A stretch of DNA of 64,000 nt, taken from positions 74,223 to 138,222 of the IMG/VR virus record IMGVR_UViG_3300032007_004072; one strand, given 5' to 3'. The notes under the pieces were generated by a model. The model had not been told where the DNA came from. It made no database searches and saw only the letters and a list, made by a program, of their open reading frames with translations. The position numbers were made by a program, and so were the translations under genes. Of this stretch, positions 5,879 to 63,119 are shown one piece after another. Within the stretch, counting starts at the first letter, position 1, and the number at the start of each line of letters is the position of its first letter. Origin of the DNA: a virus (taxonomy: Duplodnaviria; Heunggongvirae; Uroviricota; Caudoviricetes).

Positions 5879-6562
5879 ATGGTTTTTGTGGACGCAGAAA
5901 ATATTAGTAAAACTCTTTTTAAGCAGTTCTATCTTAAACATAAAGAAGAAAAGTATAAAGTATATGCAAAGAAGTCAGTAATTAGTGGTATATATCTTAG
6001 ACTTAGTAATGTAGAATTTATTGATTGTTGTCACGGTAAAAATAGTGCAGATACCTATATGACCGCAGATATTGTTAAATCTCTATATGAAGATAATATC
6101 TTTCAGTATTATGTTATTACTCAAGATAAAGATTTAGCAATAGCACTTAAAGCCATTACAGATCACTTAAAAAGAGTAACGCTTGTAACATCCCTTGGAC
6201 AGAAGTTATCGAATCTTAAATCTGTTGGTGTTGATCTCAAATATGTGGATATAGAAGAGATTGACACAAAAGATAATAATTCATTTATTACTAGAATAAC
6301 TAGGACAAATGATACTGCAACTATTTACAACTCATACAAGAAAAGAGTTTGGGTAAAAAGAGTAAATGGAAATATTTTAGAAGTACCTTTTGAAAATGGA
6401 ATGCATATTGGAACATTTAAGAGATTTTTATCACCACATAAAAAATCTTTAGGTATTGGGCCAACTACTTCTTGGGTTGACTTTATAGAAAAGCAATATC
6501 TAAAAGTAGTTGGTACTCAAATATACTTTTTGTCGGAGGATGAGCTATGGGATGAGTCATAG
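5879..6562 (+). CDS. NYN (PIN-like) domain nuclease
   Basis: VFVDAENI, GKNSADTYM, TQDKDLA acidic motifs. Confidence 0.8.
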   Translation: MVFVDAENISKTLFKQFYLKHKEEKYKVYAKKSVISGIYLRLSNVEFIDCCHGKNSADTYMTADIVKSLYEDNIFQYYVITQDKDLAIALKAITDHLKRVTLVTSLGQKLSNLKSVGVDLKYVDIEEIDTKDNNSFITRITRTNDTATIYNSYKKRVWVKRVNGNILEVPFENGMHIGTFKRFLSPHKKSLGIGPTTSWVDFIEKQYLKVVGTQIYFLSEDELWDES

Positions 6563-6917
6563 AACAAAAAATAAAATCGGACTTAAGCTAGGCGAACAAG
6601 CTAAAGCTAGGGGCGATTTTTTCAGAAAATTTTTGGATAAAGAGATAACCTTAACTGGAAAGATATTAGCCCTGCAAGATGTATTATCTGTAAATTTCAT
6701 TGGTAAATCTGTATTATTCAGTGTCAGTAATATCCCAGATGTGGATCATTTGTGGATTCACTTAGAAGAATTTAAGAACTTTAATGTAGAAGAATTTAAT
6801 TGGAATAATCCAATTACAATTAAAGGAATAGTATACTCATATACAAGAGAAAATAAAAGTAAGGTTTGGCATGTTAAATATTCACTTAAAGATGTTAGAG
6901 TAGTGAAAGGAGAATAA
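6552..6917 (+). CDS. hypothetical protein
   Basis: ORF track, start trimmed to ATG 6552 after GGAGG. Confidence 0.65.
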   Translation: MSHRTKNKIGLKLGEQAKARGDFFRKFLDKEITLTGKILALQDVLSVNFIGKSVLFSVSNIPDVDHLWIHLEEFKNFNVEEFNWNNPITIKGIVYSYTRENKSKVWHVKYSLKDVRVVKGE

Positions 6918-45554: not shown

Positions 45555-45817
45555 GGCTATATCAACTAAGTCATAATGCTAATGTGGTTCATTTAGATTC
45601 TGCATACATTTTATTCTCGTACAACGAACCTATAGCTATGTATAATGATGATGATACTTTGTTTTTGGTAAAAAATTGGGATAAGTTTTCACAATCAACA
45701 AATAAACATACCTATGAATTTTTAAGACAATACACGGCATATAAAACAATAAGAACAAAGAGAGAAGTAGAATCCTTAATAAAAAATAATTCTATAAAAA
45801 TAGTTGACAGTTTGTAG
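45551..45817 (+). CDS. hypothetical protein
   Basis: LFSYNEPIA...FSQSTNKH. Confidence 0.68.
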   Translation: MRLYQLSHNANVVHLDSAYILFSYNEPIAMYNDDDTLFLVKNWDKFSQSTNKHTYEFLRQYTAYKTIRTKREVESLIKNNSIKIVDSL

Positions 45818-45837
45818 AAAGTATGGTAATATAAGAG

Positions 45838-45937
45838 AGTAGGTTCTTTTGCATTGGGAACTTACAAGAATCTTAATAGATTCATCTCCTTTTAGAGAAA
45901 TATCCTTAGTAGTCCTACCTACTAGGGATATTTTTTT
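45838..45937 (+). ncRNA. candidate sRNA-1
   Basis: TTGACA 45804-17-TAATAT; hairpins; CATCTCCTTTT; 13-bp terminator stem plus T-run; no RBS-ORF. Confidence 0.65.
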
Positions 45938-45974
45938 ATCTTGACAAATAAAGCTAAATATGCTATATTATAAG

Positions 45975-46397: not shown

Positions 46398-46483
46398 CAT
46401 ATATGAAATTCACAGAAAATTCTAGTTAAATGATAATTAATTTTATGACTTGACAAATTTGAAAAAATGTGTTATAATATATA

Positions 46484-46590
46484 TAGAAGGTGGAAATCAT
46501 CTTCTATCATTATCATTACTTACACTATACACACGTGTAAGTTTAACATTACCGTTTGTCATTGGGGGAGTAAAATCCCCCTAAATTTTT
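46484..46590 (+). ncRNA. candidate sRNA-4
   Basis: TTGACA 46450-17-TATAAT; two stems plus GGGGGA/TCCCCC terminator. Confidence 0.62.
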
Positions 46591-46621: not shown

Positions 46622-46861
46622 ATGAGCGTAGTAGATGACCTTACCCTCTTTGTGCGCAAATGTTACAAAGAGGCTTTTCAGAAGTATTATTTTGCACAAA
46701 AGACAAACAATACAAATGATGTATTATTCTTTTCGGGACAAGTAACATTTTTAGAGCAAAATTTTGCAACATATTTAGGACTAGATGTAGATAAACAAGA
46801 ATTAAAAGATTCAGCTAAAGAAGAAGTTGATTCTTTATTAGATTTTTATAATTCTCCTTGA
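46622..46861 (+). CDS. hypothetical protein (similar to 49832..50086)
   Basis: YK.A...YYF...Y..G...FLE.NF. Confidence 0.68.
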   Translation: MSVVDDLTLFVRKCYKEAFQKYYFAQKTNNTNDVLFFSGQVTFLEQNFATYLGLDVDKQELKDSAKEEVDSLLDFYNSP

Positions 46862-46891
46862 CAAATTGTTAAAATGATGGTATATTAAACA

Positions 46892-46970
46892 TGTACCTTC
46901 CTTTAACTCAATTCAACATAATCAACTTACAAGGGAAAGAGCCTACGAAAAATAATCGTAGGCTTTTTTC
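46892..46970 (+). ncRNA. candidate sRNA-5, antisense to early-gene leader
   Basis: TTGACA 46858-17-TATATT; ACCTTCCTTTAACTC...AACTTACA; terminator GAGCCTACGA/TCGTAGGCTT. Confidence 0.68.
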
Positions 46971-47844: not shown

Positions 47845-48888
47845 ATGAATTATTTAGACGCAAAGAGCAATGGTAAACGTAAATCAAAAAATCAGCGATT
47901 GCGTAGAATATGGTATCAAATGGTGTATAGATGTTATAATTCTAAGTGCAAAGCGTACCCTTTATATGGTGGTAGGGGAATTAAAGTACAAGAATCGTGG
48001 AAAGATAATTATTTTAACTTTGAAGATGATTTATACGATAGTTATATTAAACATGTGGAAGAATATGGAGAGAAAGACACAACTTTAGATAGAATTGATT
48101 ATAACGGAAATTACGAATTACCCAATTTACGTTGGGCTACACAAGAAGAACAAGCAAACAATACTAGTCGCAACTTTATAGTCATAGATGGATTAAATTT
48201 AACACAATTTAGTAATAAGTATGATTTACCTGTTGCAACTGTATGGGCAAGACTACATTATGGGTGGACAATAGAAAAAATTATAACTACACCTGTTAGA
48301 AAATTATCACCTAAAATTTATGCACCAACAGGAGAAAGTATAGAAGAACTTGCTAAAAGATTGAATATAAATAAAAGTACTATAAAAAGTAGGCTTAATA
48401 GAGGTTGGACATGGGAAAAAATATTAAATACTCAAGTTAGAGAGTCAATTGTTGCTCCAACAGGAGAATCTTTGCAAGAAATTGCAGATAAGTTTGGTAT
48501 TTCTCCTCACACGATAAAAACACGGCTTAATAGGGGTTGGACATGGGAAGAAGCTTTAAGTAATCCAGTTAGAAATATTTCTAAAATTGTGTTATCAACA
48601 GGGGAAACAATAGCAGAATTAAGTGAGCGTACAGGTATTTCTAAAAAGGTAATAGATACTAGGTTTCATCATGGTTGGTCAGTAGAAAAAATAATAAATA
48701 CACCTGTAGAACCTAGATATAAATATTATTTACCTTGTAATAAGTCATTAAAAGAACATTGTAATAAAAATAATTATAATTATAAGACAATAGTTAACTA
48801 TATTAAAAAATATAACTTAGAACCTCATGAAGCATTAGCCAAATATTTAGAAAATAAACAAAAAAGAAATAATAAAAATACCCCTTGA
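47845..48888 (+). CDS. HNH-like endonuclease with five C-terminal HTH repeats
   Basis: RLRRIWYQMVYRC..YGGRGI..TLDRIDYNGNYELPNLRWATQEEQANN; RL..GW..EKI..TPV repeats; start trimmed to ATG 47845. Confidence 0.85.
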   Translation: MNYLDAKSNGKRKSKNQRLRRIWYQMVYRCYNSKCKAYPLYGGRGIKVQESWKDNYFNFEDDLYDSYIKHVEEYGEKDTTLDRIDYNGNYELPNLRWATQEEQANNTSRNFIVIDGLNLTQFSNKYDLPVATVWARLHYGWTIEKIITTPVRKLSPKIYAPTGESIEELAKRLNINKSTIKSRLNRGWTWEKILNTQVRESIVAPTGESLQEIADKFGISPHTIKTRLNRGWTWEEALSNPVRNISKIVLSTGETIAELSERTGISKKVIDTRFHHGWSVEKIINTPVEPRYKYYLPCNKSLKEHCNKNNYNYKTIVNYIKKYNLEPHEALAKYLENKQKRNNKNTP

Positions 48889-48919
48889 CAATCTTTTTAG
48901 TATTTGCTATACTATAAGC

Positions 48920-49048
48920 AGTTAGAGAACACCAAATCTCTAACTAAGCATATATTTTTATCCCTTTCTAATGTCTTTGATTGAATCAAGGACGCTCAGC
49001 TTTTAACCTTACATGGATTATGGCAGGAATAAATTTCCTGTCATTTTT
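48920..49048 (+). ncRNA. candidate sRNA-6
   Basis: TTGACA 48885-17-TATACT; two stems, ATCCCTTTCT and AACCTTACA, GCAGG terminator. Confidence 0.65.
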
Positions 49049-49093
49049 CATTTTCCCTATTGACAGGATAATTGCTATATGCTATAATGAGTA

Positions 49094-49190
49094 CATAAGG
49101 TTGAAGTGAAACAGCCTTACACCTACCTTTCATAAAACTCTTTTAACTGCAAGATTGGGCTTAAAGAGCGAGGACTTTTTAAGCCTTTTC
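49094..49190 (+). ncRNA. candidate sRNA-7
   Basis: TTGACA 49060-17-TATAAT; 5' hairpin, ACCTACCTTTCATAAAACTC, terminator. Confidence 0.65.
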
Positions 49191-49334: not shown

Positions 49335-49412
49335 ATGGATTTACACATTCCATTAAATAGCTGATAGTATCGACTCCCATAAAATCCCTATTCGATACTA
49401 TTAGCTATTTTT
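49335..49412 (+). ncRNA. candidate sRNA-8 (18-bp stem, C-rich loop)
   Basis: TTGACA 49301-17-TAATAT; stem 49356-73/49392-409, loop CTCCCATAAAATCCCTAT, T-run. Confidence 0.65.
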
Positions 49413-51208: not shown

Positions 51209-51378
51209 TACATAGGCAGGGAATATTCCCTGTCTTTTTAGTCTGTAAATTGTAAGAAAATTCTATTTAAATGACAATTTAATGGTAGCTATTCTCAATA
51301 AAAATATCATAATTTGCTATTGACATTATTTTTAGTATGTGCTATACTATAATCAAGATAAGAAAAGGAGAGATAAAA

Positions 51379-51459
51379 ATGTTAGACGTATTAGTATTAG
51401 CTATTGGCTATACCATTGTTTTTACAAGTTTCAAACATATTTTTACAAAAAAGTATTGA
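51379..51459 (+). CDS. 26-aa single-TM peptide (not in track)
   Basis: Own promoter, AAAGGAG RBS; MLDVLVLAIGYTIVFTSFKHIFTKKY. Confidence 0.6.
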   Translation: MLDVLVLAIGYTIVFTSFKHIFTKKY

Positions 51460-51529
51460 CAAGCTAAATGCTATATGCTATAATAAGTACAGAAAGTTGA
51501 TTAAGAACTAAAAGAAAGGTTGATGTAAA

Positions 51530-51931
51530 ATGGATACTTTGAAAAACTTTGTTATTGACGCTATGATTGATGAACTTAGTGCAATGGAAGATAGAGAAAT
51601 CTATGGAGCAGACCTCGGTTATGAGATTTTTAGTGAAGCAAATTGTAATGGTAGTTATACCTGTAATGCACTTGAAGCAGAAAATTTTATTAAGGAATAC
51701 TTTTCAGATTTTGGGGAAGTAGTAGAGGATATCAAATTTAATTTAGGTGCAGAGAATATTCCTAATCCATTTACAGAAAGTGAGCGTTTCCAAGTTGTTA
51801 TTATGCTTGAAATGAGTTCTTCACTTGTTGCACAAGTATCTATTGTAGATGAAAATTGGAACAATGAGTTTATGCTTACTAAAGAAGTAATCGAAAAAAT
51901 CACAAAAGAACTTGAAGAAATGAAAGACTAA
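51530..51931 (+). CDS. acidic protein, DNA-mimic candidate
   Basis: D/E-rich; N.NGSYTCN..EA..FI.EY. Confidence 0.68.
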   Translation: MDTLKNFVIDAMIDELSAMEDREIYGADLGYEIFSEANCNGSYTCNALEAENFIKEYFSDFGEVVEDIKFNLGAENIPNPFTESERFQVVIMLEMSSSLVAQVSIVDENWNNEFMLTKEVIEKITKELEEMKD

Positions 51932-52129
51932 AATATATAAATAGGTCGTGGGTCGCTTGTTACGACTCACGGCTTATTATTTTGTAAAGAATTCAGAAAA
52001 TTCTATTAGTGTGAAAACTCCATATATTCAGCAAAATTATTATCATAAATTTTTAATAAATCTATTGACATAATAACAATACTATGCTATACTATATACA
52101 GGTTAAGAGATAGAAAGGATTGATTAACA

Positions 52130-52937: not shown

Positions 52938-53113
52938 AGGAATAAGGCAGGGAAACCTGTCTTATTTTAATGTTTTAAATAGTTAGAAAATTATGGTTTT
53001 CAGACACTTTATTTCTAAAAGGAAAAATAAATTTCAAAAACCTATTGACATTATTATTGTTATATGCTACAATTACATTGTAAGGTTGATTAAGAGTTAA
53101 AAGAAAGGGTTGG

Positions 53114-53506
53114 TTGGTTATGAAAATTCATGTTAAGTATGTATATGTAAATGGTGTAAGTTTCTTTGCTTGTGCAGGTGGTGGTTATTATGTACATACA
53201 CCATTTTCAATGGTAGAGTATTCCAAAGGAGATAAAAAGATTTATTATATGGGGCTGAAACAGACCACAAAAGATGAATGTAACAAAAAATACTTAGAAT
53301 TAAAACATGATTGTAAACATATAAAAGGCAAGAAGTTTGAACGAGAAATAACAGAATATGATATAACAATGGAAGAATTAGAAAAGCAACTCATGAAAGG
53401 CTATGATGAATATACATGTTACATAGATGATTATAATCAAGAACAAGAAGCAATTAAGCATAATAAAGCTATATTAGCTAAAATAGAAGCAATTAAAGAA
53501 TTGTAA
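53114..53506 (+). CDS. hypothetical protein
   Basis: Cassette promoter 53045/53068; conserved leader. Confidence 0.68.
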   Translation: MVMKIHVKYVYVNGVSFFACAGGGYYVHTPFSMVEYSKGDKKIYYMGLKQTTKDECNKKYLELKHDCKHIKGKKFEREITEYDITMEELEKQLMKGYDEYTCYIDDYNQEQEAIKHNKAILAKIEAIKEL

Positions 53507-53676
53507 GAATAGGGCAGGAGAAATCCTGCTCTTTATTAGTTTGAAAAGTTTTCAGAAAATTGTGGTTTTCAGACACTTTCAACGACCATAAAAAATATTT
53601 CAAAAACCTATTGACATAATTAGTGCTATATCTTATAATATAGTTGTAAGGTTGATTGAGAGAAAGGTTGATACTT

Positions 53677-54159
53677 ATGAAGTGTTACAAGTTGTTTAGA
53701 TTAAAGGATAATCAGTTATATCCACTGTATGTATTAGCTAATGAGCCTATTCCTGTAGGTGTATGGCTTGAAGCTAAAGAAGGAATAAAAGCAAGTGACG
53801 GGAAACATGTAAAGTCAAGATTAGGTAATCTTTCATATCGTCCAGGATTCCATTGCTCTGATTATCCTGTAGCGACCCATATCGGAAGTAAGAAGAATAA
53901 AACAGACATTAAACCTAGTTTTAGACCTAAAAATCAAGTTTGGGCTGAGTGTGAGATTAAAACAGATATACACTATACAGACTACAAATCATTAAGGGAA
54001 GTACCTAAAAATGGTTATTATAGGTTCAAAACAAATGCTAACATGTATGGTAATTGGTTGATTGCAGGAAATATGAAAGTAAACAGAATACTAACAGATA
54101 AAGAAGTGTATGAAATCAATAGTAAAACAGGAGTACACGATTTACCAAGAGAAGAATAA
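53677..54159 (+). CDS. conserved hypothetical phage protein
   Basis: YKLFR...LYPLYV...RPGFH...VWAECE...GYYRFKTN; start ATG 53677. Confidence 0.72.
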   Translation: MKCYKLFRLKDNQLYPLYVLANEPIPVGVWLEAKEGIKASDGKHVKSRLGNLSYRPGFHCSDYPVATHIGSKKNKTDIKPSFRPKNQVWAECEIKTDIHYTDYKSLREVPKNGYYRFKTNANMYGNWLIAGNMKVNRILTDKEVYEINSKTGVHDLPREE

Positions 54160-54593: not shown

Positions 54594-54673
54594 AAAACCT
54601 ATTGACATTATTCTATAAAGTGTTTATAATATAAGTATAGTAAGTTATGAGTTAAAAGAAAGGATTGATTAAA

Positions 54674-54964
54674 ATGGCTAGTGTAAAAGTATATCCTAAT
54701 TGGAGAGGAATTAAAGGTATTCGTTATGTTTACAATGGTAGTTGGTCAGATTGGAATTTAATATACAAATCTTATGTATTTACAGGGAAAGACATAGAAG
54801 ACGCATTATGGGAAAACTTTTTAGAAGATACAAACCATAAAGACAATGAAGCAGGTAATGAAGAAGTAGAAAAAGAATTTAATATGTACTTAGAAGAAAA
54901 TGCAAAACCCTATTTAGATGATTGTATTTGGGGAAAATGCTATTTAGGTAAATTTAAGTATTGA
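54674..54964 (+). CDS. WRGI-motif protein
   Basis: Paralog of 31608..31901. Confidence 0.75.
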   Translation: MASVKVYPNWRGIKGIRYVYNGSWSDWNLIYKSYVFTGKDIEDALWENFLEDTNHKDNEAGNEEVEKEFNMYLEENAKPYLDDCIWGKCYLGKFKY

Positions 54965-55147
54965 ATATGCAGGCAGGGAGAAATCCCTGTCTTTTATTAG
55001 TGTTTAATTGTCTGTTTTCAAGAATTATCTGTCAATTTCCATAAAAATATTTTTATGAAATTACTAATTTGTTATTGACATTATTTTATATGTATGTTAA
55101 AATAAGTATGTAAGTTGAAGTTGATTAATAGTTAAAAGAAAGGTTGA

Positions 55148-55483
55148 TTGATTATGTTTACTGTATGTGTAGAAAATTGGATTAACGAAAAGGAATTAGT
55201 AGTAAAGTGTGAAAGCAAGGAACAAGCAGAAAATGCACTTAAAATCATTGTGAATAACTTTTTAGAGGATTTTCTTATTGATAGTACTATGGAAGAATTT
55301 AATAAAGGTTTTGGGGAATATGATAGTATTATCAAAGAAGGAAAATTTATTATCCCCTATGAAGCTACTATGTATATTGACAATATGTTACCACAGGAAG
55401 TAGAAAAATTAGATAAAACACCTAATAATTTAGGTGGTTGTATGGTTATGACTTATAAGAAGTTTGTAGAAGAAAATATGTGA
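55148..55483 (+). CDS. acidic hypothetical protein
   Basis: Cassette promoter, conserved leader, terminator. Confidence 0.65.
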   Translation: MIMFTVCVENWINEKELVVKCESKEQAENALKIIVNNFLEDFLIDSTMEEFNKGFGEYDSIIKEGKFIIPYEATMYIDNMLPQEVEKLDKTPNNLGGCMVMTYKKFVEENM

Positions 55484-56426: not shown

Positions 56427-56592
56427 ATTTAATTTAGGGCAATTTAATTTTGCCCTGTTATTTTGTTAGGAAATTTTCAGAAAATTTAAAAGATAAATAA
56501 AATTCTGTTTGTCGAACTTCTTTTTCTAATTTCAAAATAACCACAACTAAATTTTTACTTGACAAGCTAACAATACAATGTTATAATATAGT

Positions 56593-56683
56593 TACAGGTT
56601 AAGATAAAACCTGTTAAAACCTTTTTATAAACTCAATTAACTTACAGCATTGCAGGCAAGAATAAAATTCTTGTCTGTTTTGC
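56593..56683 (+). ncRNA. candidate sRNA-9, antisense to early-gene leader
   Basis: TTGACA 56559-17-TATAAT; ACAGGTT/AACCTGT stem; AACCTTTTTATAAACTCAATTAACTTACA; terminator. Confidence 0.68.
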
Positions 56684-59508: not shown

Positions 59509-59590
59509 TATAAAGGGGAAAATTCCCCTTATTTTTTTATAAAAAATACTTGACATTATTTATATTATACTGTAGAATATAGTCATAAGG

Positions 59591-59845
59591 TTGATTAAGG
59601 GTTTTAAGAAAGGATTGGTAACTATGAAAAACTATGACGCTATCGTTGGTAACTATGGGATTGTAATGGAATATAATAGTAAAGGAAAGGTATTTACAGG
59701 GCATATAGATTATATAGGCAAGGCAAAAAATAAAAGAAGTGGTAACGGCTTTTTTGTTAGCTATGAATATAATAATATACGCTATGATTACCCTGAATTA
59801 GTCACTAAGCAAGTAAATAATTACTTGTTTAATGTTCTTTTGTAA
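59591..59845 (+). CDS. hypothetical protein (start about 59624)
   Basis: Cassette promoter and conserved leader. Confidence 0.62.
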   Translation: MIKGFKKGLVTMKNYDAIVGNYGIVMEYNSKGKVFTGHIDYIGKAKNKRSGNGFFVSYEYNNIRYDYPELVTKQVNNYLFNVLL

Positions 59846-62552: not shown

Positions 62553-62792
62553 GAATAATAGCCTACTTTTATTTCGTAGGCTATTTAATTGCATAAAATC
62601 AATTTCTTGTGGGTAGAGTTGTCAAATAATCAGAAAATTTAAAAGATAAATAAAATTATGTTTATCAGAAAATTTAATCAGTGGGCAAGAAAAATAAAAT
62701 AAAAAAATCTAAAAAACCTATTGACATTATTCTGCTATTAGTCTATAATAAAAGCATAAGTTAATCAAGAGTTTTGAAAGGCGGTTTTAATT

Positions 62793-63119
62793 ATGAAAAA
62801 ACACATTACTATTAAGGAAGCTAAAAGAATTGCTAACTATGGCGTAGGGTATTGTAACTTGCAATATTTATTTAATTGCCTTGAACCTTTCGCCTATACA
62901 GCAACTAACACTTATGGGTGGCGGTCAGATTTATATCGTGTGGGCGGTGTAGTAATTAGTACAGGTTATGCACCACAAGGCGAATCAATTCCTTATGAAT
63001 TAACCCAAAAATATGAAAATCTAGCTATGAAGGTTATAAGCAAAAATCCTGACTATCACAATAGAAAAGATAAATTAGACAAGTTAATTGATGAATTTTT
63101 AGCAGAATTGGAGGCATAA
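62793..63119 (+). CDS. conserved hypothetical phage protein
   Basis: GYC.LQYL...YGWR.D.Y...ISTGY.P; promoter 62721/62744. Confidence 0.72.
   Translation: MKKHITIKEAKRIANYGVGYCNLQYLFNCLEPFAYTATNTYGWRSDLYRVGGVVISTGYAPQGESIPYELTQKYENLAMKVISKNPDYHNRKDKLDKLIDEFLAELEA

Follow-up and report, generated by a model that had tools for sequence, protein, structure and literature searches.

The units sRNA-9 and sRNA-7 of a 148-kb phage genome belong to a family of small RNA genes that, as far as alignments and pattern models can tell, is real, conserved and uncatalogued. The family comprises 15 members in all, spread over this phage and about seven related contigs. We think it moderately probable that sRNA-9 and sRNA-7 are trans-acting antisense RNAs, assembled from the parts of the coding cassettes that surround them, which damp one class of early genes. 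The window, that is, the whole stretch of 64,000 nucleotides that was analyzed, is part of a virus record with 30% GC; the same or nearly the same DNA is present in several metagenome assemblies, and from their sample identifiers we read the source as rumen.

From 45 to ~69 kb (window numbering throughout), nearly every small gene is preceded by a TTGACA-17-TAnnnT promoter of its own and a purine-rich leader, often with a terminator as well, and nine units in this array have no ORF led by a ribosome site. The array gene products are unassigned in function save for HNH-like nucleases. One array gene is distantly related to genes from the terminal small-gene regions of Bacillus and Staphylococcus-group phages, which suggests that the array is the early region and that the host belongs to the Bacillota. 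The family model finds no member in those phage regions, and cultured phages hold no DNA relative of the region and only distant protein relatives. Protein scans of viral contigs returned no close relative, and pattern scans of them gave chance matches or nothing; contig L132, from the same sample, was considered as a relative and proved unrelated. A TnpB-like gene of the phage (L045, 96–1214) is uninformative about the host, its best genome match, to Succinivibrio, being only 56%. Three contigs (L034, L037, L038) hold a minus-strand coding cassette within an otherwise one-way array, which indicates that entire cassettes can be inverted. In L028 (543–627) and L035 (4140–4225), a promoter and sense leader stand without an ORF, while the window counterpart (51320–51459) contains one of 26 aa, pointing to the loss of ORFs from cassettes. 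Beyond the window end (L046, 64.0–68.6 kb), the last cassettes carry a GC-rich hairpin directly before the ribosome site, and the long spacers between them abound in ACAA/TACAA repeats; the genes switch direction near 69.4 kb, possibly a genome end.

Table 1. Coordinates of sRNA-9, sRNA-7, sRNA-5, their putative donor cassettes and predicted target leaders (window numbering)
Feature	Position	Strand	Remarks
sRNA-9 promoter	56559–56587	+	TTGACA-17-TATAAT, 12/12, extended −10
sRNA-9 sense leader-start copy, 12 nt	56593–56604	+	identical to 52097, 57232; putative 5′ end of RNA
sRNA-9 5′ hairpin	56594–56614 (56594–56600 with 56608–56614)	+	7 bp, 7-nt loop; kept in relatives
sRNA-9 8-nt direct repeat	56605–56622 (56605–56612, 56615–56622)	+	short orthologues L022, L024 lack one unit
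sRNA-9 antisense core	56615–56648	+	predicted unpaired
Core: anti-Shine-Dalgarno	56618–56625	+	
Core: middle block	56630–56638	+	
Core: block complementary to target 5′ end	56639–56646	+	
sRNA-9 intrinsic terminator	56652–56683 (hairpin 56652–56678)	+	loop inverted in some strains
Coding-cassette promoter and leader start	52065–52108	+	likely donor type of sRNA-9 5′ module
sRNA-7 whole unit	49060–49190	+	
sRNA-7 promoter and sense leader start	49060–49104	+	closest to coding promoter 51456; 22 nt identical to L212 orthologous cassette
sRNA-7 5′ hairpin	49096–49119 (49096–49103 with 49112–49119)	+	8 bp
sRNA-7 antisense core	49120–49153	+	kept in L020 despite a different promoter and an unrelated terminator
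sRNA-7 terminator	49157–49190 (hairpin 49157–49186)	+	
Coding-cassette promoter and leader	51456–51532	+	likely donor type of sRNA-7 5′ module
sRNA-5	46858–46970	+	family core; no sense leader start, no 5′ hairpin
Predicted target leader (cassette 53045)	53079–53122	+	
Predicted target leader (cassette 53611)	53645–53679	+	best site for sRNA-9
Predicted target leader (cassette 54602)	54636–54676	+	
Predicted target leader (cassette 55075)	55109–55156	+	
Predicted target leader (cassette 59550)	59584–59626	+	best site for sRNA-7
Predicted target leader (cassette 62721)	62755–62795	+	

As Table 1 shows, sRNA-9 and sRNA-7 share one layout, and their sequence features mark both as independent, non-coding units within the 50–400 nt expected of such RNAs, each with its own promoter and intrinsic terminator. 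The sRNA-9 promoter taken together with the next 18 nt is closest to that of coding cassette 52065 (score 63, against a mean of 36.7 and sd of 8.9 for 264 promoters), and the sRNA-7 promoter likewise matches the consensus at 12/12 positions with an extended −10. An earlier note on this DNA had claimed that both units open with a sense copy of a leader start, and this is confirmed: the two strands of the 148-kb genome together contain TACAGGTTAAGA at only three places, 56593, 52097 and 57232 (the latter two had been placed one base off, at 52098 and 57233), in all cases 4–6 nt downstream of a −10 box, while CATAAGGTTGA (11 nt) is found in the genome only at 49094 and 59584, just downstream of a −10 box. 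An in-register 12-nt match to a coding leader start is reached by 5/300 shuffles for sRNA-9 and by 0/300 for sRNA-7. The start is folded by its own complement in each RNA, as had also been noticed, and the reverse complement of 56618–56646 does resemble the leader at 54640, which gives the best alignment among the window leaders. In each RNA, the reverse complement of the core follows a leader from its first base through the Shine-Dalgarno site and spacer. The two motifs said to be common to sRNA-5 and sRNA-9 are present at 46905 and 46924 in the former and at 56630 and 56639 in the latter. These comparisons support a leader origin for the 5′ start and for the core alike.

The fold z of sRNA-9 is −5.3, mostly due to the terminator, and the computed unpaired probability of its core is 0.91–0.99. 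A functional minus-strand cassette at 56618–56646 was ruled out, there being no minus-strand promoter or linked ORF, as was a peptide-coding RNA, the sole start being a TTG that has no ribosome site and is absent from the relatives. A search of the window with Rfam 15 gave no match. The terminator loop (56662–56668) is an A-run in the window and L024 and a T-run in L020 and L022, unlinked to the long or short form of the RNA; either a micro-inversion between the arms of the hairpin or recombination within the unit would explain this.

Several of the other non-coding units of the window also start with a hairpin, of 8–9 bp: sRNA-1 (45804–45940), sRNA-4 (46450–46590) and sRNA-6 (48885–49050). 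Of these, sRNA-1 contains a stretch that complements the other leader class (AAGGAGA type), and sRNA-6 resembles a family core interrupted by an inserted hairpin. The 19-bp stem of sRNA-8 (49356–49412) is identical in L020 (2425–2540), with two more A's in the C-rich loop. In the same contig, only a stub of sRNA-4 remains and another RNA, served by the sRNA-4 terminator, has taken its place (655–850, 2555–2660), sRNA-6 is missing, and an extra non-coding unit follows sRNA-8.

The computed pairing points to leaders of the array as partners. When the sRNA-9 core was compared with 11,836 windows taken from both strands of the genome, cassette leaders made up nine of its 13 best non-self partners (53045, 53611, 54602, 55075, 62721 and four located just past the end of the 64,000-nt window, at 64.3–68.7 kb), and one other of the 13 was the sRNA-5 locus read on the opposite strand. 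Against the window leaders, the best-eight mean for the sRNA-9 core is −21.5 kcal/mol, a value that none of 60 dinucleotide shuffles reaches (−14.7 ± 1.2); the sRNA-7 core gives −20.7 kcal/mol, reached by 2/60 (−17.4 ± 1.4). Across the family, no shuffle out of 60 reaches the value of 10 of the 12 cores; for the two sRNA-7 cores, 2 of the 60 do. These statistics are no proof of function, since homology to leaders by itself gives complementarity. The open segment is nevertheless complementary, by computation, to the translation-start regions of mRNAs encoded elsewhere, and the complementarity stops at the predicted first bases of the targets.

The earlier note had expected regulon-wide specificity, and this is not borne out by the predicted energies. 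When full-length RNAs are folded, binding is −14 to −22 kcal/mol for the target leader class and only −5 to −8 kcal/mol for leaders of other classes (49415, 50139 and 50547 at −5 to −6). Even the cassettes that have the same sense start as sRNA-9 (52065 and 57200) are weak targets, at −12 and −8 kcal/mol. Because both groups are predicted to bind weakly, the computed specificity is for one leader class, starting TGTAAG or similar, and not for the entire array.

Related contigs were gathered through homologues of the neighboring proteins (96–97%, 71–74% and 44–51% identity) and, with duplicate assemblies excluded, hold 12 further members: three in L020, two each in L040 and L212, and one each in L022, L024, L026, L035 and L038. 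A 12-member model recovers both L212 members, which were not used in building it (E 5e-12 and 5e-8), and in the phage genome its strong matches are sRNA-5, -7 and -9 only. The model (R1) scores sequence only; RNAalifold on the 12-member alignment gave no consensus pair. At the sRNA-9 site, the RNA is present in L020, L022, L024 and L026, and the site is empty in L028 and L030. Members in L035, L038, L040 and L212 adjoin different genes, so that the units move like coding cassettes, and repeated promoter/terminator/ribosome-site cassettes are gained, lost and replaced among these close relatives.

Within the units, the modules have separate histories. Relative to sRNA-9, the L022 and L024 orthologues keep 24–26 core bases and 33–36 of 36 terminator bases, but only 19–21 of 29–30 promoter bases. 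The sRNA-7 orthologue of L020 retains hairpin and core behind a different promoter and ahead of an unrelated terminator. By these alignments, the antisense core is not decaying; it is maintained while promoter and terminator swap. The neutral decay, or lack of leader homology in orthologues, that would have counted against the earlier note was therefore not seen. In the 5′ stem, 96% of positions are paired across members, and one pair of the sRNA-9 hairpin is G-C, G-U or A-U in different relatives. The orthologues L212:774 and L040:6605 differ by a G-C to A-U change at one stem pair, a position at which two further members carry G-U. The covariation is weak and only suggestive, being matched by 43–51 of 500 shuffles (seven sequences), and one of the two double changes behind it stems from L038 being misaligned.

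These data make it highly improbable that the units are functionless scars of cassette recombination, in which pieces of an inverted leader persist only through gene conversion with leaders. The array is indeed strongly recombinogenic, with ORF-less stubs at L028:543, L035:4140 and L020:655, and sRNA-9 is dispensable in some relatives. The genuine stubs, however, lack terminators, whereas the family members keep perfect promoters, strong terminators and pair-preserving 5′ stems where neighbor proteins are only 44–74% identical, and no minus-strand promoter or ORF makes use of the inverted leader.

The members fall into long and short forms. In the short forms (L022, L024, L035), the 5′ start pairs straight onto the anti-Shine-Dalgarno stretch, which is unpaired at only 0.25–0.47, as against 0.91–0.98 in six long forms; three further long forms are less open (0.47–0.74). 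In sRNA-9, the second hairpin arm looks like one unit of an 8-nt tandem repeat, that is, a slippage repeat, and L038 has its own version of this repeat. Predicted binding energy is about the same in long and short forms. Any gain from the repeat would thus lie in speed, since the anti-Shine-Dalgarno stretch opens but the total binding energy barely changes.

The same comparison bears on what the pairing might do. It is conceivable that the RNAs pair with early mRNA 5′ ends mainly to stabilize them against 5′-to-3′ decay, as such pairing blocks RNase J1 on Listeria hly and prsA2 (PMC8406224): the best-kept block complements the extreme 5′ end of the targets and is open even in the short forms with a paired anti-Shine-Dalgarno stretch. 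However, the anti-Shine-Dalgarno stretch is kept in every member, its CC.TT columns being invariant or nearly so, and the predicted duplexes cover the ribosome site. Action on host mRNAs with similar ribosome sites, the other form of this proposal, has against it that the match extends beyond the Shine-Dalgarno along phage-specific leader sequence. We consider either version improbable.

The origin of the RNAs was claimed in the earlier note to be a fold-back duplication of the shared leader. The part of this claim that stands is that the pieces derive from leaders: the reverse complements of all cores align along entire leaders with 10–12-nt exact runs, as expected of inverted homologues. The self-templated fold-back is not supported, since one fold-back predicts that start and core copy the same leader, and here they come from different leader classes. 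When the sense start of each of the 12 members is scored against its own core, 32–122 of 127 leader starts score better, the own start ranking at about the median or below. Leaders of the donor cassettes rank about 50–74 of 167 against the sRNA-9 core, the likely donor itself at about 58–74; in L040:6605, the first 13 nt are of a third leader type and the donor leaders rank 53–133 of 167. Sense and antisense parts thus do not trace to the same target sequence, with sRNA-7 ambiguous. Its donor-type leaders rank 1–3, 16 and 53 of 167 with the hairpin arm included, a match imposed in large part by the hairpin and the Shine-Dalgarno. Moreover, the order of start, complement and whole inverted leader cannot arise by one fold-back.

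The modules themselves point to an assembly from separate parts. The promoter-plus-start modules match specific coding cassettes, 52065 for sRNA-9 and 51456 together with its L212 orthologue for sRNA-7, and the sense start looks as if it was imported together with a coding-cassette promoter. AAGGTT-like words stand at both leader ends. The hairpin would need no second inversion, because any leader start should complement any inverted Shine-Dalgarno region.

A longer history could still begin with a fold-back duplication of one leader, in which a long palindrome suffered deletion between the AAGGTT-like repeats, followed by promoter exchange and drift. The short forms have exactly the layout that this predicts, a start on the anti-Shine-Dalgarno and then the remaining inverted leader; the ranks of the sRNA-7 promoter-family leaders are in line with it, and small inversions do happen here, as in the terminator loop. 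We find this history rather doubtful, as in no member do sense and antisense parts derive from the same leader beyond chance, sRNA-5 is a core without any sense start, and the sRNA-7 core, besides the forced nature of its match, agrees exactly with two other leader types over 12 nt. The intermediates for which the earlier note had proposed to look did not appear: no leader palindrome of ≥12 bp was present at the promoter starts of 16 loci, a small sample in which long palindromes would assemble poorly, and no coding cassette occupies the sRNA-9 orthologous site in the relatives examined.

In the reading that we favor, antisense RNAs built from cassette parts, the sRNA-9 and sRNA-7 genes would yield trans-acting RNAs of ~90 nt, transcribed by host RNA polymerase from early-type promoters, as the perfect consensus boxes suggest. 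The 5′ hairpin would conceal the borrowed leader start and shield the 5′ end, comparable to the 5′ stems that shield sRNAs from RNase J (PMC8406224). The unpaired core is predicted to pair with one class of early-mRNA leaders, along the stretch between their first bases and the Shine-Dalgarno site, and this pairing may block ribosome loading. A stable RNA would accumulate relative to short-lived mRNAs made from the same type of promoter, resulting in a delayed damping of the gene class. To assemble such a unit, an inverted leader of one class would have been placed between a promoter-plus-leader-start from a cassette of another class and a terminator, and exchange of promoter modules and terminators appears to be still ongoing; recombination between promoter/terminator cassettes has been demonstrated in RB49 and phi1 (PMC2839356). 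In the line of sRNA-9, a slippage repeat of the anti-Shine-Dalgarno stretch would then have supplied the second hairpin arm, leaving that stretch unpaired.

Known trans-encoded base-pairing sRNAs of phages include lambda PreS (10.1101/2024.10.31.621285) and the prophage Pas sRNAs (10.64898/2026.05.13.724894). Like these, the present RNAs have their own promoter and intrinsic terminator, no ORF, and an unpaired segment predicted to lie over the ribosome sites of several mRNAs. They differ in that the predicted targets are the phage's own early genes, reached through a shared leader, and in that the pairing is long (25–35 nt), rests on homology to the target and comes with no Rfam match. The C4 antisense RNA of P1 and P7 also represses phage genes by pairing with mRNA; it shares an operon with its target, icd-ant, and serves lysogeny (PMC8198154). 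The proposed repression here is of the same kind, but sRNA-9 and sRNA-7 are stand-alone units up to 20 kb from their many predicted targets, they give no match to the C4 family of Rfam, and searches of this phage found neither an integrase nor a serine recombinase. The antitoxin of a type I toxin–antitoxin system was rejected as a model, the predicted targets being many, imperfect and distant, with none adjacent or overlapping.

The closest precedent for the array itself is the PeSL cassettes of RB49 and phi1, in which promoter, terminator and ribosome-site repeats surround small uncharacterized genes and are shuffled by recombination (PMC2839356, a text that mentions antisense RNA 0 times). 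The repeated units and their shuffling are of the same kind here, with the difference that some cassettes carry an inverted leader in place of the ORF. Plant microRNAs arise by inverted duplication of their targets, and their precursors are self-complementary fold-backs of one target. Our RNAs resemble them in that the regulator is an inverted copy of the target, so that specificity is given at origin, and differ in having an unpaired antisense part and a sense part drawn from a different leader class. The literature found on regulators that originate by inverted target duplication consists of eukaryotic papers only. Described origin routes of bacterial sRNAs are de novo emergence, decayed phage or transposon genes, mRNAs and rearrangement (PMC8825220, PMC4350180). 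In the literature covered, a scope that most subscription papers fall outside, there is no report of phage sRNAs that copy a shared early leader in inverted form.

It has yet to be settled how new bacterial sRNAs originate and acquire targets (PMC8825220). In this family the regulator and its predicted targets are homologous, lie in one genome region and vary among close strains, so that genome comparison can trace the steps by which they arise (module swap, slippage, inversion). The family also hints that large lytic phages, for which few regulatory RNAs have been described, may shut off early genes by means of RNA. We propose tentatively, as something possible that we would stop short of calling probable, that the early array breeds its own regulators: a leader inverted behind any array promoter would become a class-wide silencing RNA, and the shuffled set would serve as an RNA-only timer of early genes. 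The inversion could result from a fold-back followed by deletion, or the leader could be captured from a different cassette, and each RNA of the set may be tuned to a different leader class. If true, such an array would be a route of sRNA birth not found in the literature examined.

Further non-coding units adjoin the family in L040 and L212. Upstream of the family member are two more conserved non-coding units of other types (L040, 6150–6420; L212, 305–600), and L040:4244 and L212:5928 have a long structured leader in common. Back to back with the family member, on the minus strand, lies a non-coding cassette (L040, ~6420–6580; L212, ~600–750) in which a TGTAAG-class sense start is folded on its own complement and followed by an anti-Shine-Dalgarno stretch and a terminator; this cassette is the best candidate for a true local fold-back.
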